64,000 nucleotides of DNA from Escherichia coli (GTDB lineage: Bacteria; Pseudomonadota; Gammaproteobacteria; Enterobacterales; Enterobacteriaceae), in the NCBI RefSeq assembly GCF_002854065.1, contig NZ_CP024147.1; one strand, 5' to 3'. The notes beneath the pieces were generated by a model, which worked only from the letters and a program-made list of their open reading frames with translations, searched no databases and was not told the DNA's origin. Both the position numbers and the translations under genes were made by a program. Shown here one piece after another: positions 1 to 46,912 of the stretch. Position 1 is the stretch's first letter. Each line of letters starts with the position of its first letter.

Positions 1-1065
1 ACCCGTCGCCAGACGAATCAGTACGGTGATCAGCCATGCCATGATGTAGGGCGAGATATTGCCGTGGGACATCAGCATGCCGATGGTGTCGCCGATGCCG
101 GTGTCGATGATGGTCTGCTTCAGCACGCCACCTGCACCGATGATCAGAATCACCATTGCAATGCTTTTCACCGCGCTTTCAAAAGCGTTCATTACCCACT
201 GCATATCGTGCCCGCGCGCGGTGCCAAAGAGTACGAATGCAACCACCATCGCAATAAACATTGCAATCGGCGAGGAACCGATAAAGTTAACCACTTCCCA
301 CGCAGGGGTATCTTTTACCAGCCAGATATTGGCGATGGTGGTAGAGATCATAATGATCGCCGGGATCAACGGCACCAGAATCGAAACGCCGAAAGAGGGC
401 AGATTATTCATATCTACCGGTTGATCTGCTTTCAGGAATGATGGCGTTGGGCGCTCAAGATTGCCGAGGAACTTCGGCAGGATCAGACCTGCGCAGATGA
501 CACTTGGGATCGTCACCAGTACGCCATAGATATAAACCATCCCCATATCCGCGCCATAAGCATTCACCAGCGCCACCGGACCCGGCTGCGGTGGGAACAG
601 TGAATGTGCGGTAGTGGCAGCTGCTACTGCCGGGATCGCCAGTTTCAGGAACGGAATTTTAGCTTCGGCGGCAATAACAATAACCAGCGGTGCTAACATG
701 ATAAAGGCCACTTCATAGAACATCGCCAGACCGAAAATCAGGCCGATGATAATCACCGACAGCTGTACATAACGCAGACCGAGACGTGCCAGCAGCGTAT
801 GCGCTATCTGGTGAGCCGCGCCGGAGTCGACCATCAATTTACCGATGACCGCACCGAACACCACGATGATAGCCAGTTCCCCCAGCGTGTTGCCGAAGCC
901 CGCTTTCATGGTGTGCAGCAGCGACATCAAATCCATGCCCGCCAGCATCCCGACGGACAGCGCCGCCACCAACAAGGCCACCATTGAATTGATTTTGAAC
1001 TTCAAATTCAGTACCAGCATCAGACCAATGCCGAATACCACCCAGAGAATGTTAAGCACATGCAT
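1..1065 (-). CDS. gntP: Gluconate permease GntP, N-terminal part (C-terminus lies beyond the window start)
   Basis: Minus-strand translation from ATG at 1065..1063 reads [23 protein letters not shown]..., a polytopic GntP-family transporter; no stop before the window edge. The plus-strand track ORFs here are antisense shadows. Confidence 0.85.
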
Positions 1066-1221
1066 AACGTTTTACCTTACCTGGTTGAACCGTTGTTATT
1101 TTGGGCGACATGTTATGTAAATTGGTCAACCATTGTTGCGATGAATGTCACATCCTCTGATCAATAACCATCGATTACCTTTTGCTGCAATTTGCAGCAA
1201 CAACCAGGAGAGTGAAATTCT

Positions 1222-1290
1222 TGTGATGTGGTTAACCAATTTCAGAATTCGGGTTGACATGTCTTACCAAAAGGTAGAACTTATACGCCA
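1222..1290 (+). promoter_or_regulatory. uxuAB promoter/operator region: TGGTTAACCAATTT palindrome (UxuR/ExuR-type operator), adjacent TGTGA CRP-like half-site, TTGACA -35 hexamer
   Basis: Palindrome tggttaacca at about 1229..1238 and ttgaca at about 1254..1259, upstream of uxuA. Assignment to UxuR/ExuR is from established knowledge of the uxu regulon. Confidence 0.5.
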
Positions 1291-1404
1291 TCTCATCCGA
1301 TGCAACGCCACGGCTGCGGTCTGGTTGTTCATCCGGATACCTAAACAACTCCAGGGTTCCGCGTCTCTTTGCTGTGGAACCCACTATGTGAAAGAGGAAA
1401 AATC

Positions 1405-2589
1405 ATGGAACAGACCTGGCGCTGGTACGGCCCAAACGATCCGGTTTCTTTAGCTGATGTCCGTCAGGCGGGCGCGACTGGCGTGGTTACCGCTTTGCAC
1501 CATATCCCGAACGGTGAAGTATGGTCCGTAGAAGAGATCCTCAAACGCAAGGCTATCGTTGAAGATGCAGGCCTGGTGTGGTCTGTCGTAGAAAGCGTGC
1601 CAATTCACGAAGATATCAAAACCCACACTGGCAACTATGAGCAGTGGATCGCTAACTATCAGCAGACTCTGCGCAACCTGGCGCAGTGCGGTATTCGCAC
1701 CGTGTGCTACAACTTCATGCCGGTGCTCGACTGGACCCGTACTGACCTCGAATACGTGCTGCCAGACGGCTCCAAAGCTCTGCGCTTCGACCAGATCGAA
1801 TTCGCTGCATTCGAAATGCATATCCTGAAACGCCCAGGTGCGGAAGCGGATTACACCGAAGAAGAAATTGCTCAGGCAGCTGAACGCTTCGCCACTATGA
1901 GCGACGAAGACAAAGCGCGTCTGACCCGTAACATCATTGCCGGTCTGCCGGGCGCGGAAGAAGGGTACACCCTCGACCAGTTCCGTAAGCACCTGGAGCT
2001 GTACAAAGATATCGACAAAGCCAAACTGCGCGAAAACTTTGCCGTCTTCCTGAAGGCGATTATTCCGGTTGCCGAAGAAGTTGGCGTGCGTATGGCTGTT
2101 CACCCGGACGATCCGCCGCGCCCAATCCTCGGCCTGCCGCGCATTGTTTCTACCATTGAAGATATGCAGTGGATGGTTGATACCGTAAATAGCATGGCGA
2201 ACGGTTTCACCATGTGCACCGGTTCCTACGGCGTGCGTGCTGACAACGATCTGGTTGATATGATCAAGCAGTTCGGTCCGCGTATTTACTTCACCCATCT
2301 GCGCTCCACCATGCGTGAAGATAACCCGAAAACCTTCCACGAAGCGGCGCACCTGAACGGTGACGTTGATATGTACGAAGTGGTGAAAGCGATTGTTGAA
2401 GAAGAACACCGTCGTAAAGCGGAAGGCAAAGAAGACCTGATCCCGATGCGTCCGGACCACGGTCATCAGATGCTGGACGACCTGAAGAAGAAAACCAACC
2501 CAGGTTACTCCGCAATTGGTCGTCTGAAAGGCCTGGCCGAAGTTCGCGGTGTCGAACTGGCGATCCAGCGCGCTTTCTTTAGCCGTTAA
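1405..2589 (+). CDS. uxuA: Mannonate dehydratase
   Basis: Track ORF 1369..2589 trimmed to ATG 1405 ([23 protein letters not shown]...), 394 aa, AGAGGAAA Shine-Dalgarno upstream; the track start is a TTG extension. Confidence 0.95.
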
Positions 2590-2669
2590 TATCCACCGGC
2601 ATGGCTGCGCGCCGTGCCGGTTCCTTCTTCCTTGCCGTCACTCTCTGAAGACGGATTCTGGAGTTTACG

Positions 2670-4130
2670 ATGACTACTATTGTTGACAGCAATCTGCCGG
2701 TTGCCCGCCCGTCATGGGATCATTCTCGTCTGGAATCACGCATTGTGCATCTCGGTTGCGGGGCGTTTCACCGTGCGCACCAGGCGCTGTACACCCATCA
2801 TCTGCTGGAAAGCACCGACAGCGACTGGGGTATCTGCGAAGTTAACCTGATGCCAGGCAACGACCGCGTGCTGATCGAAAACCTGAAAAAACAGCAACTG
2901 CTGTACACCGTGGCGGAAAAAGGCGCGGAAAGCACCGAGCTGAAAATTATCGGTTCGATGAAAGAAGCGCTGCACCCGGAAATCGACGGCTGCGAAGGTA
3001 TTCTCAACGCGATGGCGCGTCCGCAAACGGCGATTGTCTCTCTGACGGTCACGGAAAAAGGCTACTGCGCTGATGCGGCAAGCGGTCAACTGGATCTCAA
3101 TAACCCGCTGATCAAGCACGATCTGGAAAACCCGACTGCGCCGAAGTCCGCGATTGGTTACATCGTCGAAGCCTTGCGTCTGCGTCGTGAAAAAGGGCTG
3201 AAAGCATTTACGGTGATGTCCTGCGATAACGTGCGTGAAAACGGTCATGTGGCGAAGGTCGCGGTACTGGGGCTGGCTCAGGCGCGTGACCCGCAGCTAG
3301 CGGCATGGATTGAAGAGAACGTCACCTTCCCGTGCACCATGGTTGACCGCATCGTTCCGGCGGCGACGCCAGAAACCTTACAGGAAATTGCTGACCAGCT
3401 GGGCGTTTACGACCCGTGCGCCATTGCCTGCGAACCGTTCCGTCAGTGGGTGATTGAAGATAATTTCGTTAATGGTCGCCCGGACTGGGATAAAGTGGGC
3501 GCACAGTTCGTTGCAGACGTTGTGCCGTTCGAAATGATGAAGCTGCGTATGCTGAACGGTAGCCACTCTTTCCTGGCGTACCTCGGTTACCTCGGCGGCT
3601 ATGAAACTATTGCCGACACCATGACTAACCCGGATTATCGCAAAGCGGCCTTTGCCCTGATGATGCAGGAACAAGCGCCAACGCTGTCGATGCCGGAAGG
3701 TACGGACCTGAACGCCTATGCGACGCTGCTGATCGAGCGTTTCAGCAACCCGTCTCTGCGTCACCGTACCTGGCAGATTGCGATGGACGGCAGCCAGAAG
3801 TTACCGCAGCGTCTGCTGGACCCGGTGCGTCTGCACCTGCAAAACGGCGGCAGCTGGCGTCACCTGGCGCTGGGCGTGGCTGGCTGGATGCGTTACACCC
3901 AGGGCGTGGATGAGCAGGGTAATGCCATTGACGTGGTCGACCCGATGCTGGCCGAGTTCCAGAAGATTAACGCGCAGTATCAGGGCGCAGACCGCGTGAA
4001 AGCGCTGCTAGGCCTGAGCGGTATTTTTGCCGATGATCTGCCGCAGAATGCCGACTTTGTTGGCGCGGTGACGGCGGCATATCAGCAGCTGTGCGAACGC
4101 GGTGCGCGCGAGTGTGTGGCTGCGCTGTAA
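2670..4130 (+). CDS. uxuB: D-mannonate oxidoreductase (fructuronate reductase)
   Basis: Track ORF, 486 aa, MTTIVDSNLPVARPSWDHSRL...; ATG verified at 2670. Confidence 0.95.
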   Translation: MTTIVDSNLPVARPSWDHSRLESRIVHLGCGAFHRAHQALYTHHLLESTDSDWGICEVNLMPGNDRVLIENLKKQQLLYTVAEKGAESTELKIIGSMKEALHPEIDGCEGILNAMARPQTAIVSLTVTEKGYCADAASGQLDLNNPLIKHDLENPTAPKSAIGYIVEALRLRREKGLKAFTVMSCDNVRENGHVAKVAVLGLAQARDPQLAAWIEENVTFPCTMVDRIVPAATPETLQEIADQLGVYDPCAIACEPFRQWVIEDNFVNGRPDWDKVGAQFVADVVPFEMMKLRMLNGSHSFLAYLGYLGGYETIADTMTNPDYRKAAFALMMQEQAPTLSMPEGTDLNAYATLLIERFSNPSLRHRTWQIAMDGSQKLPQRLLDPVRLHLQNGGSWRHLALGVAGWMRYTQGVDEQGNAIDVVDPMLAEFQKINAQYQGADRVKALLGLSGIFADDLPQNADFVGAVTAAYQQLCERGARECVAAL

Positions 4131-4265
4131 CTAACTGATTACCCTACAGACTTACTGGTCAATCAAACTGATATTTGGTTGACCAGTTTTCGTTTTTTTG
4201 CCCACCTGTACGTGCCAACTTCCAGTGCTAATGGTATAGTTTGAGATTAACAGGGGCCGTAAAAT

Positions 4266-4308
4266 TGCCCGTTGTAGGCCGGATAAGGCGTTCACGCCGC
4301 ATCCGGCA
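4266..4308. repeat. REP (repetitive extragenic palindrome) element
   Basis: gcccgttgtaggccggataaggcgttcacgccgcatccggcaaaa between uxuB and uxuR; canonical REP core GCCGGATAAGGCG...CGCATCCGGC. Confidence 0.6.
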
Positions 4309-4344
4309 AAAATTTGATTAACCGCACCTAACGGACACAACACC

Positions 4345-5118
4345 ATGAAATCTGCCACCTCTGCGCAAAGACCTTACCAGGAAGTCGGGGCGATGATCCG
4401 CGATCTGATCATAAAGACGCCGTACAATCCTGGCGAACGGCTGCCGCCGGAGCGTGAAATTGCAGAAATGCTTGATGTCACGCGGACGGTGGTACGTGAA
4501 GCGCTGATCATGCTGGAGATCAAAGGGCTGGTGGAAGTGCGCCGGGGTGCCGGTATCTATGTTCTTGATAGCTCAGGCAGCCACAACACAGACAGTTCGG
4601 ATGCCAACGTCTGTAATGATGCGGGTCCTTTTGAGCTGTTACAGGCGCGTCAGTTACTGGAAAGTAACATCGCGGAATTTGCCGCTTTGCAGGCTACCCG
4701 CGAAGATATCGTCAAAATGCGTCAGGCATTGCAACTGGAAGAGCGTGAACTGGCTTCCAGCGCGCCGGGTAGCAGCGAAAGCGGTGATATGCAGTTCCAT
4801 CTCGCCATTGCCGAAGCAACGCATAACAGCATGCTGGTGGAGTTATTCCGTCAGTCCTGGCAGTGGCGGGAAAACAATCCAATGTGGATCCAGTTGCACA
4901 GCCATCTGGATGACAGCCTGTATCGCAAAGAGTGGTTGGGCGATCACAAACAGATCCTCGCCGCGTTAATCAAAAAAGATGCCCGAGCGGCGAAGCTGGC
5001 AATGTGGCAGCATCTGGAAAACGTTAAGCAACGTCTGCTGGAATTCTCGAACGTTGACGATATTTATTTTGACGGCTATCTGTTTGATTCATGGCCGCTG
5101 GATAAAGTCGACGTCTGA
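4345..5118 (+). CDS. uxuR: GntR-family repressor of the uxu regulon
   Basis: Track ORF, 257 aa, N-terminal GntR-type HTH (ERLPPEREIAEMLDVTRTVVREAL). Confidence 0.95.
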   Translation: MKSATSAQRPYQEVGAMIRDLIIKTPYNPGERLPPEREIAEMLDVTRTVVREALIMLEIKGLVEVRRGAGIYVLDSSGSHNTDSSDANVCNDAGPFELLQARQLLESNIAEFAALQATREDIVKMRQALQLEERELASSAPGSSESGDMQFHLAIAEATHNSMLVELFRQSWQWRENNPMWIQLHSHLDDSLYRKEWLGDHKQILAALIKKDARAAKLAMWQHLENVKQRLLEFSNVDDIYFDGYLFDSWPLDKVDV

Positions 5119-5130
5119 CTTATTATAATA

Positions 5131-5162
5131 AGCGCAAGGGTAAACGTTCCTTGCGCTTTCTT
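5131..5162. terminator. Hairpin plus T-run between convergent uxuR and yjiC (likely bidirectional terminator)
   Basis: gcgcaagg-gtaaacgtt-ccttgcgc stem-loop followed by tttctt. Confidence 0.5.
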
Positions 5163-5258
5163 AAATTAAGAAGTCGCAATGAGTATTGCTTTGTAAATTG
5201 CAGGGTATTGTTTAAATATCTGTATAACCTGAATATTAGTACTCATTCTTCTCAGTTG

Positions 5259-5978
5259 CTATTTACCAATATAATTCCATTCACCATTTTTTAATTCAAA
5301 CAGTTCTGGAAGAGATGACGGTTGCAGAGTCATGCGTTTGAGTGGCGCATCTTCATCACCGGGGATAACTTTATATCCCATTTTTACATGGATCTCCGCG
5401 GTACCAGGATAGGCTTCTATACCAATGATTGGGTCATTTCCCATCTCAATATTAGCATTAAGTAATGCGGCAAGGGCGAATCCGGAAGAATTTGCTACCC
5501 CTGAGACAGTTATTATCTGATCAATATAGATATCAATTCTTGGCTGCTCATTGGTCCATCTTTTTGCCTGAGAAACTGGAAGGGTTGAAATATATCCTAT
5601 CGTGGTTCCGGCGTAACCTGGAACATTGCAACCAGGGCCTAATGTTATTTCATGAACTGTATAGTCCTCAACAGGATCGAAAGGGCTCTTCATAAATAAA
5701 TTTAGCCGTAAACCTTCTGCTAATTCTGTAGCAGCATGCGCCTTTTTACATATGCCACCATATATTTCGTCTAAAGCTGAGGTGATTTTCAAGTTTCGAT
5801 AGAGCATACGTCCTGTTGTTGTAATACCATTGAATTCTCTGCATGTTTCTGTCACATAATTAAATGGCCAGGACTCTTTACTAATATCAAGTTTTCTAAT
5901 TTCGACAACGCTTTTTCCATCGTAATTATGGTTATTGCCACGAGCAAGAGGCGGAAGATAGATATTTTCCGTATCCAT
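5259..5978 (-). CDS. yjiC: Uncharacterised protein YjiC
   Basis: Track ORF, 239 aa, ATG verified (MDTENIYLPP...). An in-frame stop lies 25 codons upstream, so no long extension is possible in this strain. Confidence 0.7.
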   Translation of the reverse strand: MDTENIYLPPLARGNNHNYDGKSVVEIRKLDISKESWPFNYVTETCREFNGITTTGRMLYRNLKITSALDEIYGGICKKAHAATELAEGLRLNLFMKSPFDPVEDYTVHEITLGPGCNVPGYAGTTIGYISTLPVSQAKRWTNEQPRIDIYIDQIITVSGVANSSGFALAALLNANIEMGNDPIIGIEAYPGTAEIHVKMGYKVIPGDEDAPLKRMTLQPSSLPELFELKNGEWNYIGK

Positions 5979-8121: not shown

Positions 8122-9294
8122 TTATGCCGTTTCAAACGTTCCTTTCACGCAGGCTTTGCCGTCTTTGACCATCAGCTTGCCGCGAGCGTATACCTGCTCA
8201 ATGCGTAATTCTGGCGTCATGACCAGTAAGTCTGCGTCATTGCCTGGCAGAATTTCGCCTTTCCCGCTCAGGTTAAGGAAACCGGCTACGCTACTGGTGA
8301 GCGGGCGCAGGGCATCGCTGATACTGAAATCATAATCTTTGACCAGCACCTGCACGGTTTCCAGCAACGTTTCAAAACCGGCAACACCGATATGGGTTAA
8401 ATTCCCTTCGTCATCGAAGAACGGCTGGCTACCGTTGCCGTCGGAGCTGAGGGTGACGCGTGCCAGCGGAATACCTGCCTGAACGGCGCGGGCAATACCT
8501 TCGGCAGGGGCGACTGGTTCGTCAATGCTGCTGGTGATATCGATGGTGCCGCCTTTGCGCGCGAACTCCAGCGCCTGCTCAAACAACGGAACGTTGCGGT
8601 TAACGTGGGTCGGCAGCAACTTGCTAATCGGCACATCGCAGTTTTCCAGCAGGTCATAGACAGGCTGTAACGCCTTTTTGCTGTCGCCCATGTGGAACAC
8701 GGTGACGCCAGGTTTACCGCCGAGCAAACCGCCAACGCGGGATTCCGCCGCCATATTAGCCAGGTGATAAACGTCCGGTGCGGCAGAACGGTGATCAGAG
8801 ATGGCGCATTTCACGCCAATCACGCGATCGATAATCGCCACGTCTTTTTCCACGGAACCCGTAATAGTGCGGGAAGGGACATGATAAGCGCCGGTCAGCA
8901 TCCAGGCGCTGATGCCTTCTTCATTGAGCGCACGGGTCTTGGCGAGCAGGGATTCCGGGTGGCGAGAGATAGAGTCGGTGCCCAGCAGACCAACCACTGA
9001 CGTGACGCCTGCTTCCGTCAGACGACTTAACGCCACTTCCGGCGTGCGCGTCGTGGGACCTGCTTCGCCGCCACCGCCAATCAAATGGACGTGTTGATCA
9101 ATAAAACCTGGGCAGAGGATCTGCCCGCTGAGATCGACAACCGTGCAGTCCGGTACAATGTCAGAAGGGATATTACTGGCAACGGCGATAATTTTGCCGT
9201 TAGCGACGAGGACATCGCAAATTCCCCGATCTTCCGGCGCATACAAATGCGCTCCCTGCAGCAGGGTAAAACCGGCTGCGGTATAATCAATCAT
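8122..9294 (-). CDS. iadA: Isoaspartyl dipeptidase
   Basis: Track ORF, 390 aa, amidohydrolase-type metal-binding HxH motif (IDQHVHLIGGG). Confidence 0.9.
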   Translation of the reverse strand: MIDYTAAGFTLLQGAHLYAPEDRGICDVLVANGKIIAVASNIPSDIVPDCTVVDLSGQILCPGFIDQHVHLIGGGGEAGPTTRTPEVALSRLTEAGVTSVVGLLGTDSISRHPESLLAKTRALNEEGISAWMLTGAYHVPSRTITGSVEKDVAIIDRVIGVKCAISDHRSAAPDVYHLANMAAESRVGGLLGGKPGVTVFHMGDSKKALQPVYDLLENCDVPISKLLPTHVNRNVPLFEQALEFARKGGTIDITSSIDEPVAPAEGIARAVQAGIPLARVTLSSDGNGSQPFFDDEGNLTHIGVAGFETLLETVQVLVKDYDFSISDALRPLTSSVAGFLNLSGKGEILPGNDADLLVMTPELRIEQVYARGKLMVKDGKACVKGTFETA

Positions 9295-11263: not shown

Positions 11264-12442
11264 TCATGAAGTGACCACTTGCAGCTTAAATAATTGTACT
11301 GTGCTGATAAGCGCAGCAATAAACAACGCCGCCGCGCCGCAGAGAGTGGCGCCGGCAAGCGCCGATGTTCCATTGCCGAGCATACTGGTCAGCGCCGGGC
11401 CGAGGATTTGTCCAATGCCGTAAATGAGCGTCACAAAGCCTAAAAGATTGAGATTTCCCGGTACGCTCAGTTGGCGGGCGATAGTCATCACCAGAGATGT
11501 CGTGCCCATAAAGGTACCGCCAAAACCAAGACTGCTGATGATAAGCAAGAGAGGCGAGTCGCTGGCGAGAGTAAGCAGCACACAGATAGCCTGCACCAGC
11601 AAATTCGCCGTCAGGCAGGGCAAAGCCCACCAACGTTTTGCTGCCCATAGCCAGCCAAAGCAACCAGGCACAATTGATAAGCCGACTAACGTCCAGAGAT
11701 GGGCGGTTAACAATGGTGAGCCTGCATCTTTCGCCATGAGCGGCAGGTAAGTCGCGACGATGATATAACCAAATCCCGCCAGGCCGTACAGAATAGCCAG
11801 TAACCACCAGCTCATTATCTGTTGCTCCGTTTTTGCCAATGGCATTGGTGTGATGGCGTGTTTTTTCGAGGGCATTAAAAGCGTAAGTGCAATCAGCATC
11901 ATGCCAGAAAGCGCCCCGGCGCCTTGCCATAACGTTTGCGAGGAGAGGTCAAAATGCAGGCCTGCCAGAACATATTCATTGCCCAGTGCGATGCCAATGC
12001 CAACGCCAGAAAACAAAGCTGCCAGCACAAAAGGATGGCGCGTGTGCTGCATAATCAGCGTCGAACCAAAAATCAGCATACCGGCGCTGGCGACACCTGC
12101 CAGGACGCGAATCAATAACACCAGAATAAATGGCAGCAACCATGCCATTGCGAGGATCAACAACCCGCTCGCCAGGGCAGAAGCCAACAGAAATGGGCGC
12201 AGGCGCGATGGCTGGTGAAATGCGCCAAACGAAAATAGCAGACTGCCAGCCAGATACCCCGCATAGTTGCCGCTGGCAATCCACGAGAGCTGGCTAAATG
12301 AAAACGATCCTTCCGCCATCATGACGGGCAACATAGGCGTATAAAGGAAGCGGCCTAAACCCATACCTAAGGTCAGAACCAGCATCCCGAAAAGCGCGGT
12401 GCTGAAAGAAAAGCGTTCTACGGGATGCGAGGGCGAAGGCAT
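11264..12442 (-). CDS. yjiJ: MFS transporter YjiJ
   Basis: Track ORF, 392 aa, 12-TM-like hydrophobic profile. Confidence 0.85.
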
Positions 12443-17013: not shown

Positions 17014-17053
17014 AATGTTAAGAATAGAGCCTGACGGCAGGATCGCGCAAAAA

Positions 17054-18286
17054 TCACCGCTCCTCCGCCAGCTCGGCAGCCTGATGTTGGCGCACGCGAT
17101 TAAGCAATCCGGCCAGGGTGAAAACGACGATAACGCCTGCCACAACGGCTAACAGATGAAACGGCAAGCGACCGCTGTTAAACCACAGCCAGCGGCCGAT
17201 TTCGACCGAGACAGACATCACCATCAGGATCACCATATTCAGCGATGCGGAGACGGTCCCTTTCGGTAAGTTATTGGAAAACAGCGTAAAGCGGAATAAG
17301 GTCGGGAAAATCAAACCAATCCCGAAAGCATACAGACTGGTGCCCAGCACCGACCACAGCCAGACGTGCGGTGACAGCAGATTGCCGATAATCAACAGCG
17401 CGAGGCCAACCAGTTGAAGGGGTACGGCACGCCAGATAAAGCGCGGTTCGGTCGGATCTTTAACGAAACGCGCCACGATGGCATTCGCGACAATCACCGC
17501 GCCGAACACCGGAACCTGTGTCCAGGCGAACTGCGAAGTTGTTAAGCCGCCCGCGTCGATCAGGATCACCGGCGAGACAGCCACCCAACTCATCATGGGG
17601 ATATAGCTTAAAGAGATGGTTGCTGCGCCAAAGAGGAACAGCCGATTGCAAAAGACATTACGAAAATCGCGCAAGACGCTTTTGGCGCTAAATGGAACCG
17701 CGCCGCGCTTCACCGTCTCTGGCATCGCCAGCAGTAAGCCAACAAATGAGATAAAACCCATAACCGCAATGATGGCAAAAAGGACTTTCCAGTGCACAAA
17801 GTGCATCAGAGCTGCGCCGGAAAGCGGGCCAATAATCGGCGCAATCAGTACGATGGAGGTGATAATCGCCATCAACTTGATCCCTTTTGTCTGTCCGAAC
17901 GCCTCCTGCACCGTGACATAACCAACGGTGGCAATAAAACAGATACTGGTGCCCTGAATTGCACGCGCGATAAGAAACTGTGTCATAGACGTTGTGAACA
18001 TTGTCGCAGCGCAGGCAAGGGTAAATATTAGCGCCCCGGTAATCAGCACCGGCCTGCGGCCAACCCTGTCGGAAAGCGGCCCCAGCAGCCACTGCAATGC
18101 CATGCCTCCAGCGAGATAGAGACTGACGGCAGCCGGGGCCAGACTGACATCGGCATTAAAATCACGGACCACATTAATGATCCCTGGCTGGATCAGGTCC
18201 GTCGACAGATACGCAGCAAAGTCATACAAAATCAACGCCATCGGGAAAAACAGCGTGGCGGCATGGCGGGCAAAAAAACGTGGCAT
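17054..18286 (-). CDS. mdtM: MFS multidrug efflux transporter MdtM (YjiO)
   Basis: Track ORF trimmed to [23 protein letters not shown]..., 410 aa. Confidence 0.85.
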
Positions 18287-18600
18287 AACAAACAACTCCT
18301 TGTCCGGAGAACCCCAATGGGGAAAACGAAATTCAATACCGTCGGTAATGACGAAAGGCAGGCGAGAAGGACAAATGTACTGAATTTCATGTAATCAACC
18401 ACACTGCCTGCGAATACACAGACAGAGAAATACCTTCTGACTCCAGGTCAGAATGTATAACGATTACAAATAGTCATCAGCACATTACACCTCTTTAATT
18501 GATGGCTTGCATAGAAAATATACACCTTAAGTGTAATTAAAATTTGGTAATGCTGCCAACTTACTGATTTAGTGTATGATGGTGATTTTAAGGTGCTTGC

Positions 18601-18876
18601 GTGGCTTCCATTTCCATCAGATGTCCTTCCTGCTCCACTACTGAAGGCGTGGTGCGTAACGGCAAAAGCACTGCCGGACATCAGCGCTATCTCTGCTCTC
18701 ATTGCCGTAAAACATGGCAACTACAGTTCACTTACACCGCCTCTCAGCCCGGTACGCACCAGAAAATCATTGATATGGCCATGAATGGCGTCGGATGTCG
18801 CGCCAGTGCACGCATTATGGGCGTTGGCCTCAACACGGTTTTACGTCACTTAAAAAACTCAGGCCGCAGTCGGTAA
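18601..18876 (+). CDS. insA: IS1 InsA (DNA-binding regulator, zinc-finger CPSC...CSHC)
   Basis: Track ORF, 91 aa, GTG start, [37 protein letters not shown]... Confidence 0.85.
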
Positions 18877-19298
18877 CCTCGCGCATACAACCGGGCAGTG
18901 ATGTGATTGTCTGCGCTGAAATGGACGAACAGTGGGGCTACGTCGGTGCTAAATCACGTCAGCGCTGGCTGTTTTACGCGTATGACAGGATACGGAGGAC
19001 GGTTGTGGCGCACGTCTTCGGTGAACGCACTCTGGCCACACTGGAGCGTCTTCTGAGCCTGCTGTCGGCCTTTGAGGTCGTAGTATAGATGACGGATGGC
19101 TGGCCGCTGTATGAATCACGCCTGAAGGGAAAGCTGCACGTTATCAGCAAGCGTTACACTCAGCGCATTGAGCGACATAACCTGAATCTGAGACAACATC
19201 TGGCAAGGCTGGGACGGAAGTCACTGTCGTTCTCAAAATCGGTGGAGCTGCATGACAAGGTCATCGGGCATTATCTGAACATAAAACACTATCAGTAA
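18795..19298 (+). pseudogene. insB: IS1 insB' transposase frame interrupted by an in-frame TAG (expected Trp codon) at 19086..19088
   Basis: Track splits the frame into 18795..19088 (...LLSAFEVVV*) and 19089..19298 ([14 protein letters not shown]...). As I recall it, canonical IS1 reads ...DVVIWMTDGW... through this point. Confidence 0.7.
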
Positions 19299-19439
19299 GT
19301 TGGAGTCATTACCCGACAGCGAGGTGTTTAGTGTGCCATGTCAGGCGAGAAATTCTATTGGATGAATCAAGTCCAACTTACTCATTGTCAATTTCATGGT
19401 TGATTATTCGAAACGTGATGCTATTTCCAACATCAACGC

Positions 19440-19496: not shown

Positions 19497-19784
19497 ATGC
19501 CAATGGAGTTTGAATGGGATGAAAACAAGGCCAAAAGTAATCGGGTGAAACATGGCATCCGCTTTGAAGATGCGGTGTTATTGTTTGATGATCCACAACA
19601 TTTGTCACAGCAAGAACGCATAGAAAACGGTGAGTATCGCTGGCAGACAATCGGCCTGGTTTACGGCATCGTGGTTATTCTGGTTGCGCATACCATCCGT
19701 TTCGAAAGCGGAAATGAAATTATTCGAATCATCAGTGCACGAAAAGCAGATCGTAAAGAGAGGAATCGCTATGAGCATGGTTAA
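19497..19784 (+). CDS. brnT: BrnT-like toxin (DUF497, RelE/ParE-superfamily ribonuclease fold), 95 aa
   Basis: Track ORF 19470..19784 trimmed to MPMEFEWDENKAKSNRVKHGIRFEDAVLLFDDP...IIRIISARKADRKERNRYEHG; N-terminal FEWDE.K...KHG and C-terminal RIISARKA are hallmarks of DUF497. Confidence 0.8.
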   Translation: MPMEFEWDENKAKSNRVKHGIRFEDAVLLFDDPQHLSQQERIENGEYRWQTIGLVYGIVVILVAHTIRFESGNEIIRIISARKADRKERNRYEHG

Positions 19785-20073
19785 ACATAAACGAGGGACC
19801 TCCTCTACACTCGATGTGCAGCATGAGGCCGAACTGAAGGCGCTGACGAATAAATCCGACGAAGATATTGATTACAGTGATATCCCACCTTCCAGCGATG
19901 AGCAATGGTCTAACGCCGAACGCGGTAAGTTTTATCGGCCATTGAAAACTCAGGCTTCGGTGCGTATTGATGCTGATGTGATGGAATGGTTGAAGCGACC
20001 AGGTAAAGGCTATCAAACTCGCCTGAACGCAATTTTACGTGAAGCGATGCTGCGCGATCAGAACAAAAAATAA
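19771..20073 (+). CDS. brnA: BrnA-like antitoxin (DUF4415, ribbon-helix-helix type), 100 aa
   Basis: In-frame ATG within track ORF 19630..20073: MSMVKHKRGTSS...VRIDADVMEWLKRPGKGYQTRLNAILREAML; start overlaps the brnT 3' end by 14 nt; GAGAGGAA Shine-Dalgarno. Confidence 0.8.
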   Translation: MSMVKHKRGTSSTLDVQHEAELKALTNKSDEDIDYSDIPPSSDEQWSNAERGKFYRPLKTQASVRIDADVMEWLKRPGKGYQTRLNAILREAMLRDQNKK

Positions 20074-20106: not shown

Positions 20107-21063
20107 TTACTTCCTCAACCCCGCAAACGCTGCCCGAATCTCTTCCTCCGGCAACTGAATCCCGATAAACACCATTGTGCTATGCGGTTTTTCATCGCCC
20201 CACGGGCGGTCCCAGTCGGCGCTGTAGAGGCGCTGGACGCCCTGGAACAGCAGGCGGTTAGGTTCGCCGTCAATCCACAGCATCCCTTTGTAACGCAGCA
20301 GTTTATCTGCCGATTCCAGAAGCAGGTTTTCCATCACCCGGGAAACTTCGCTGATATCTACCGGGTAATCCAGTTCCACCACAATCGACGAAATATCGTT
20401 TTGTTTATCCGCGATAAAGTGGAAACGCGGTTTGGTGCTGACGACGTTCTCTTCCAGCATAAAACCGTTGGTGTTGAACAGCAGGCCCAGGTCGATGTCG
20501 CCGTGGGTGACGGTGTAGACCGGTGCACGGGCGTTGATGCGCGCCAGGCGTTCACGCAGTTTTTCTGCTTCGCCTGCGACGTCGGTTTTGGTCAGCAGAA
20601 TACGGTCGGCGTAGCCAACCTGGGACTGGGCGATGGTGAACTGGTTCATCTGCTCGTCGGCATGTACCGCATCCACCAGCGCAATCACACCGTCCAGCAG
20701 GTAACGCTGGCATAAAATCTCATGGGAGAAAAAGGTCTGAATAATCGGGCCGGGATCGGCCATGCCGGTGCATTCAATGACCAGACGGTCAAACTGAATA
20801 TTGCCCTTGTCGAGATTATCCAGCAGGTCGAGTAGTGCGTCTTCCAGCTCGTTGGAGCGCGAACAGCAGATGCAGCCGTTGGTCAGCGTTTTGATCTGCG
20901 TGGCGCGGTCGCCAATTAGTTGATCATCAACGGAGACTTCGCCGAATTCGTTTTCAATCACGGCAATCTTGTAGCCGTGTTGTTCGTTAAGAATATGGCG
21001 CAGCAGGGTGGTTTTTCCCGCGCCTAAAAAACCGGTGAGTAGGGTAACTGCAATCGGGTTCAT
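20107..21063 (-). CDS. yjiA: CobW/P47K-family GTPase (zinc-chaperone-like) YjiA
   Basis: Track ORF 20107..21147 trimmed to MNPIAVTLLTGFLGAGKTTLLRHIL... (P-loop GAGKTT), 318 aa. Confidence 0.9.
   Translation of the reverse strand: MNPIAVTLLTGFLGAGKTTLLRHILNEQHGYKIAVIENEFGEVSVDDQLIGDRATQIKTLTNGCICCSRSNELEDALLDLLDNLDKGNIQFDRLVIECTGMADPGPIIQTFFSHEILCQRYLLDGVIALVDAVHADEQMNQFTIAQSQVGYADRILLTKTDVAGEAEKLRERLARINARAPVYTVTHGDIDLGLLFNTNGFMLEENVVSTKPRFHFIADKQNDISSIVVELDYPVDISEVSRVMENLLLESADKLLRYKGMLWIDGEPNRLLFQGVQRLYSADWDRPWGDEKPHSTMVFIGIQLPEEEIRAAFAGLRK

Positions 21064-46505: not shown

Positions 46506-46912
<407 letters not shown>

Follow-up and report, generated by a model that had tools for sequence, protein, structure and literature searches.

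An IS1F insertion sequence with an amber codon in its transposase frame and the probable deletion of a restriction cassette at its left end in Escherichia coli

Within the window – the whole 64,000-nucleotide stretch of E. coli core chromosome analysed here, running from gntP/uxuAB to sltY – lies a 768-bp insertion sequence (18546..19313, + strand) that is an IS1F isoform and belongs to an amber sub-lineage, with a TAG codon in the transposase frame. The best joint explanation, and one that we consider probable, is that this amber IS1F is non-autonomous, that it inserted on the brnT side of the locus, and that a transpositional deletion from its left end followed. An IS1-bounded deletion of this kind would account for the loss of the restriction cassette from the locus, a reading supported by comparison with genomes that retain the missing genes.

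The architecture of the element is that of the IS1 family. Its 768 bp are bounded by imperfect 23-bp terminal inverted repeats starting GGT(A/G)ATG, with IRL at 18546..18568 and IRR at 19291..19313 (+) complementary at 20 of 23 positions, and no IS1 ends other than this pair were found in the 64-kb window. An intact insA (18601..18876, +; GTG start, 91 aa) encodes a Zn-ribbon and an HTH (Pfam PF03811 and PF12759), and is followed in the -1 frame by insB', the two being joined at an A6C programmed frameshift motif (18852..18858, +, within TTAAAAAAC). The insB' frame is open from 18857 to 19085 (+) and with InsA gives a 162-aa truncated InsAB', ending at the TAG at 19086..19088 (+). The C-terminal 69 codons of insB' (19089..19298, +) are orphaned, their first codon being the native Met ATG at 19089, directly 3' of the stop. 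When aligned to IS1A, in which codon 163 is TGG for Trp, the amber codon appears as a G-to-A transition at 19087. Every part of the first-pass annotation's description – an IS1 with 23-bp ends, insA, A6C and TAG at these positions – was confirmed, as was its statement that the stop replaces a Trp codon of IS1. The interruption of the transposase frame can also be measured: the conceptual InsAB' has 232 aa, with the Pfam domain DDE_Tnp_IS1 at residues 102-232, and a stop at codon 163 leaves profile positions 1-61 of 131, whilst the Zn-ribbon and HTH stay intact. Having no complete DDE_Tnp_IS1 in its InsAB', the window element is a member of the family by descent, and a defective one. In near-identical genomes RefSeq/PGAP labels it as a pseudogene ('IS1 family transposase; programmed frameshift; internal stop'). 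An Rfam search around the element returned no match.

Alignment shows 761 of the 768 bases to be the same as in K-12 IS1F (99.1%, 7 differences), against 90.9% identity to IS1A; these values lie within the thresholds used for the isoform (at least 98-99% to K-12 IS1F and about 90% to IS1A), and TAG at codon 163, the other mark of the isoform, is also present. The K-12 copy (insA7 b4294 / insB7 b4576) is like the window copy in its 768 bp, inverted repeats, intact insA, A6C and TAG at the same codon, and it too has no target-site duplication (TSD) at its own locus. It differs by the 7 substitutions and in its chromosomal position, which is next to fecI, about 50 kb off on the K-12 map. In K-12, insB7 is an annotated pseudogene, and the passages of PMC12428005 and PMC12903888 that concern K-12 IS1F name it a 'type 4' IS1, after an earlier classification.

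The first-pass annotation had taken the TAG as decay of the window copy, which is not upheld. Since TAG occurs in sampled IS1F copies at five loci, that of K-12 next to fecI included, the isoform naturally carries the stop, a case that the first-pass annotation had itself named as a refutation, and the TAG is no sign of decay of the window copy; a stop codon that comes with the isoform is no evidence on the age or decay of any one copy. A sequencing or assembly error at 19087, foreseen as a possible refutation, has in its favour only that the amber is a single base; given that the same 31-mer with TAG stands in 3,100 independent complete assemblies, K-12 MG1655 among them, sequencing error is excluded and we give this reading practically no credence. 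Relative to ESY002, the nearest RefSeq copy at the locus, the window copy has changes at 18637, 19082 and 19181 (element positions 92, 537 and 636), three of its 7 differences from K-12 IS1F, which we regard as unremarkable against a background of about 1 difference per kb. The change A537 had been tried as a marker of every copy at this locus, which proved wrong: it marks a sub-clade of 335 genomes only, and the window copy joins A537 with two further private changes.

How far has the amber codon spread? TAG copies were counted by a 31-mer positioned to deny TGG copies any 28-bp seed word. It has 4,266 places, spread over 3,100 of the 5,426 complete E. coli genomes (median 1 and maximum 6 per genome), and 37 of these places are on plasmids. 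The TGG version of the same local context, a marker that is not exclusive to IS1F and is common to related isoforms such as IS1X3, has 17,659 places, as many as 45 in a single genome, and 2,179 of them are on plasmids. Intact IS1F-like copies, for instance in the O157-like strain 133 and in O104:H4 2011C-3493, have TGG and are annotated as functional, and the sampled intact copies stand 3-10 nt apart from the amber ones. Given this short distance and the low copy number, the amber marks a low-copy sub-lineage derived from an active isoform.

Sampled amber copies fall at five loci: next to fecI (K-12, ST131, a BL21 derivative and E2865); at the window locus, between mdtM and brnT; next to a basic-amino-acid/polyamine antiporter in an island near tRNA-Phe (SLDY13 and 1303); inside ybhM (DC71 and N1024); and next to a psu gene (isolate AF10). 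By their left junctions the fecI, antiporter-island and ybhM copies are present in 2,598, 448 and 223 genomes respectively, with about 1,100 genomes for the window locus; these junction counts do not verify TAG genome by genome, the codon having been read in sampled copies only, all of which carry it. Together they amount to about 4,370, not far from the 4,266 TAG places, so that almost all of the amber sub-lineage seems to sit at four fixed loci, which fits a view of the amber copies as old and nearly static. The amber copies of E2865, DC71 and N1024 also have A7 in place of A6C (C to A at element position 313), a change that might alter frameshifting.

When species-representative genomes were scanned with an amber 32-mer, one match only was returned, on a myxobacterial contig, and the E. 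coli representative was without a match. This suggests that the amber lineage is specific to E. coli, because the one contig found is a probable contaminant: it is NZ_JPMI01000182.1, a 547-bp contig in the draft genome of Archangium violaceum Cb vi76, for which contamination with E. coli is most likely.

Is an element of this kind dead? The first-pass annotation had called it probably immobile, and whilst the missing transposase speaks for this, the products that amber copies have left behind speak against it. Inside ybhM, amber copies are flanked by a perfect 9-bp TSD, GTCGCCATA, and are the same as the fecI copy of E2865 over all 768 nt, TAG included. The AF10 copy at the fifth locus equals the window-locus copy of strain STEC367 at every variable site, including TAG and a 1-bp deletion. 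An 8-9 bp TSD is absent from the window copy and present at the ybhM amber copy; in strain 720632 there is an inverted duplication instead. At the locus in this strain (NZ_CP025842.1; 1347-9150 of the extracted stretch), two identical inverted 767-bp copies, each with TAG, A537 and the 1-bp deletion, stand around an inverted mdtM-yjiK segment; the inversion measures about 6.3 kb and takes in part of yjiJ, which is split between the two copies. The 9 bp by one IRR, GCAATCCAC, are the reverse complement of the 9 bp by the other IRL, GTGGATTGC, both old junctions (TTAAAATTT with IRL, and IRR with CGACAGCGA) are kept, and the target stands uninterrupted, once, in the yjiJ of the window at 12261-12295.

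An inversion accompanied by a second, inverted IS copy and an inverted target duplication is the textbook inversion outcome of intramolecular replicative transposition, familiar from classical IS1 genetics. The 720632 structure is just such an inversion, carried out by the copy of the window locus. Because the amber element encodes no complete transposase, the enzyme must have been supplied by another IS1, and the 720632 genome holds many IS1 copies. The marks of a non-autonomous element are all present: intact ends, a broken transposase, and transposition products of amber copies. Since its own transposase is without more than half of the DDE domain, amber IS1F would move only when another IS1 gives InsAB' in trans, and the sequences point to a window IS1F that is not dead but non-autonomous. 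Trans-acting InsAB' is likely to come from the 'consensus', autonomous IS1A/IS1E, which shares the inverted repeats, insA, A6C and insB' of the window copy and is found with 8-9 bp TSDs; IS1A diverges from the window copy by about 9% (70/768), and has TGG at codon 163 and a complete transposase. According to PMC12428005, IS1A/IS1E transposes on its own. In the passages on mobility in PMC12428005 and PMC12903888, K-12 IS1F is natively immobile and makes up 44% of non-consensus-IS1 insertions under over-supply of InsAB'; those mobility passages do not mention the stop codon. Of the proposed immobility, then, the lack of a complete transposase stands, and what does not stand is a general inability to move, in view of the ybhM TSD, the 720632 inversion and the trans-mobilised IS1F of K-12 (PMC12903888).

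Could the TAG instead have travelled between copies already in place? Site 542 (TAG/TGG) is found in all four combinations with each of sites 156 and 210, which simple descent does not allow, and the amber copy of SLDY13 is a mosaic, with an IS1A-like tract at element positions 345-414; hence gene conversion between IS1 copies occurs, and it could in principle have moved TAG into copies already inserted. We think transposition of amber copies the better general explanation, on the grounds of the ybhM TSD and the 768/768 identity, and we infer that the TAG is older than the insertion at the window locus.

Turning to what surrounds the element, homology to K-12 ends at 18545/18546 in the mdtM-rpnD spacer, where K-12 reads TTAAAATTT directly followed by GCGGTTAATC, and restarts at 20107, at the end of yjiA. 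On the left, mdtM (17053..18285, - strand; coordinates transferred from a RefSeq relative) lies 260 bp from IRL; on the right, the toxin gene brnT (19497..19784, +; Pfam PF04365) begins 183 bp downstream of IRR and is followed by the antitoxin gene brnA (19771..20073, +; Pfam PF14384), the pair (19497-20073) being absent from K-12. E. coli O78 strain 3 has the order mdtM-rpn-yjiR-yjiS-symE-hsdR-hsdS-hsdM-restriction endonuclease-brnT-brnA-yjiA. When the window junctions are placed on this locus they fall at 8735/8736 and 20000/20001, so that the IS1 stands in place of exactly 11,265 bp; the right end-point precedes the start codon of the brnT-adjacent endonuclease gene by 13 bp. An IS at the end-point, native collinear flanks and missing DNA that relatives retain, the features expected of an adjacent deletion, are all found here, and the first-pass proposal of an insertion followed by an adjacent deletion that removed the restriction cassette is thereby supported.

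The ends of the element agree with this. On re-inspection there is no 8- or 9-bp direct repeat at the two ends of the window IS1, the left flanking 9-mer TTAAAATTT (18537..18545), in the mdtM-rpnD spacer, being unrelated to the right one, CGACAGCGA (19314..19322), as had been noticed before. A decayed TSD was considered and ruled out, because IS-free genomes have a sequence identical to each flank right up to the end of the IS. Adjacent deletions and inversions produced by IS1 through intramolecular replicative transposition belong to classical IS1 genetics. Like the classical adjacent deletion, the window locus keeps the IS at the end-point, has no flanking TSD and has one junction unchanged; unlike it, the substrate here cannot encode its own transposase.

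The locus falls in the immigration control region (ICR), whose cassette-like variation and 'empty site' are described by Sibley & Raleigh (2004), as summarised in PMC12707154. Like the 'empty site' as it appears there, the window locus lies in the hypervariable yjiN/mdtM-yjiA interval and is without hsd, mcr and mrr; brnTA is among the genes known from there. It differs in that rpn, yjiR and yjiS have gone as well, yjiPRS being conserved 'framework' genes of the region (PMC4498929), and in that it is bounded by an IS end. On account of these two differences, the loss at the window locus has the look of a deletion by an IS, not of an exchange of cassettes.

Which of the two flanks has moved? 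The right junction, IRR with CGACAGCGA, is constant in 1,113 of the 5,426 genomes, about 20% of complete E. coli, and a copy so widely shared agrees with the earlier description of this IS1 as old. The left junction of the window type is found in 447 genomes, about 8%; for strain typing, the two junctions mark these respective shares of complete genomes. A second left junction, present by subtraction in roughly 650 genomes, was seen in strains AVS0542 and 300033: with an identical right junction, their IRL abuts an unrelated 263-bp segment (3120-3382 of their extracted stretches) that ends in a fragment of a dienelactone-hydrolase gene, and their homology to the window ends at 18265, in the 5' end of mdtM, of which they have a different version. 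Each left allele has sequence that the other lacks, so a deletion alone could not turn either into the other. As the right junction is constant across two left junctions, the left (mdtM/IRL) flank is probably the displaced one; this bears on the question, posed in the first-pass annotation, of which flank is displaced. A deletion on the right (IRR) side had been entertained by analogy with the fecI and antiporter loci, and was dropped on the junction counts and the second left allele. At those two loci it is the left flank that is constant and the right (IRR) flank that differs between strains, so the left end cannot be taken as the active one in general. Next to fecI, the right flank of the K-12 copy (directly yjhU) differs from that of ST131, BL21 and E2865, with no TSD in either arrangement; this difference suggests another IS1F-associated rearrangement.

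The same evidence bears on a version of events built on the first-pass annotation, in which the IS1 inserted on the mdtM side, acquired a private nonsense mutation, became immobile, and deleted the cassette from its right end. The left target TTAAAATTT is AT-rich, IS1 prefers AT-rich targets, and the right flank varies at two other IS1F loci, all of which would suit it. Against it, the TAG also occurs in copies at four other loci; it is the right junction that stays constant (1,113 genomes, compared with 447 for the left one of the window) and there is a second left allele, so that an identical right junction would have to arise twice; and the copy has been mobile in strain 720632. We consider this version already largely refuted, and it would surprise us if it were correct.

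The simplest history starts from the other side. IS1F would have inserted upstream of brnT, at the target CGACAGCGA, in an ancestor that carried rpn-yjiR-yjiS-symE-hsdRSM and a further restriction endonuclease in the ICR. Its left end would next have transposed within the chromosome into TTAAAATTT, in the mdtM-rpnD spacer, an intramolecular event that deleted the intervening 11.3 kb or so; the IS would thus have come to stand between unrelated flanks, and the strain would have lost its restriction cassette. Both left alleles would be explained by a single insertion upstream of brnT and a minimum of two left-end events, independent of each other and in different backgrounds.

Could homologous recombination have given the same result? 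IS1F copies in direct orientation at the brnT and the mdtM-rpnD sites would recombine into one hybrid with half of each TSD, and the end product would be the same, an IS with unrelated flanks and exact junctions. Moreover, IS1 insertions recur at the locus, for example in Ec-91 and A287, and there are visible traces of recombination or gene conversion among IS1 copies. However, a low-copy, non-autonomous element would have had to make extra insertions, and to do so twice, given the two different left junctions; the two-copy intermediate was not found in 5,426 genomes; and the same copy performs intramolecular transposition in strain 720632. We therefore hold two-copy recombination to be a rather unlikely route, if the most serious competitor, and favour transposition as the deletion route for its parsimony and for the 720632 inversion. 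Searches of the 5,426 genomes for intermediates – IS1F with a TSD at the brnT or the mdtM site and the cassette kept, using synthetic simple-insertion junctions – found none, and with no surviving intermediate we infer both the order of events and transposition over two-copy recombination. Two lone matches in the junction search were set aside as unrelated IS1 events: in Ec-91 an intact IS1 lies between the endonuclease gene and brnT, about 200 bp away, with hsd retained, and in A287 an IS1A has taken the place of mdtM.

Further features were noticed elsewhere in the window. At 46520-46906, in the spacer between the genes that ESY002 annotates as yjjW and yjjV, a 101-bp unit is repeated in tandem 3.8 times; by its consensus the array looks like REP/BIME-type intergenic repeats, and here the ESY002 alignment is offset by about 100 bp, which may reflect a difference in copy number. 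Over gntP-uxuA-uxuB, at window positions 1-5800, divergence from ESY002 is about 2.4%, against about 0.1% elsewhere in the window, suggesting a recombination tract boundary near 5.4-5.8 kb. Within yjiJ, the window has one extra base at 11538 relative to ESY002, where yjiJ is annotated as frameshifted, so the yjiJ of the window may be intact.

What, if anything, keeps amber IS1F in about 57% of E. coli genomes? A putative benefit or self-interest, by which the element would be more than a mere relic, strikes us as highly improbable. Were it so, amber IS1F might possibly serve as a fixed source of InsA and of a truncated, DNA-binding InsAB' that damps IS1 activity; or perhaps a putative split transposase could arise, with the 69 C-terminal residues made by re-initiation at the native ATG after the TAG.

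To conclude, the feature is real and already annotated, and as ordinary mobile-element biology it matters little beyond book-keeping. As we read it, the locus would offer a clean natural example of a transposase-less IS1 remodelling a defence island, here with the removal of a type I restriction system together with another endonuclease. Amber IS1F has also inverted 6 kb in one lineage, with a borrowed transposase.
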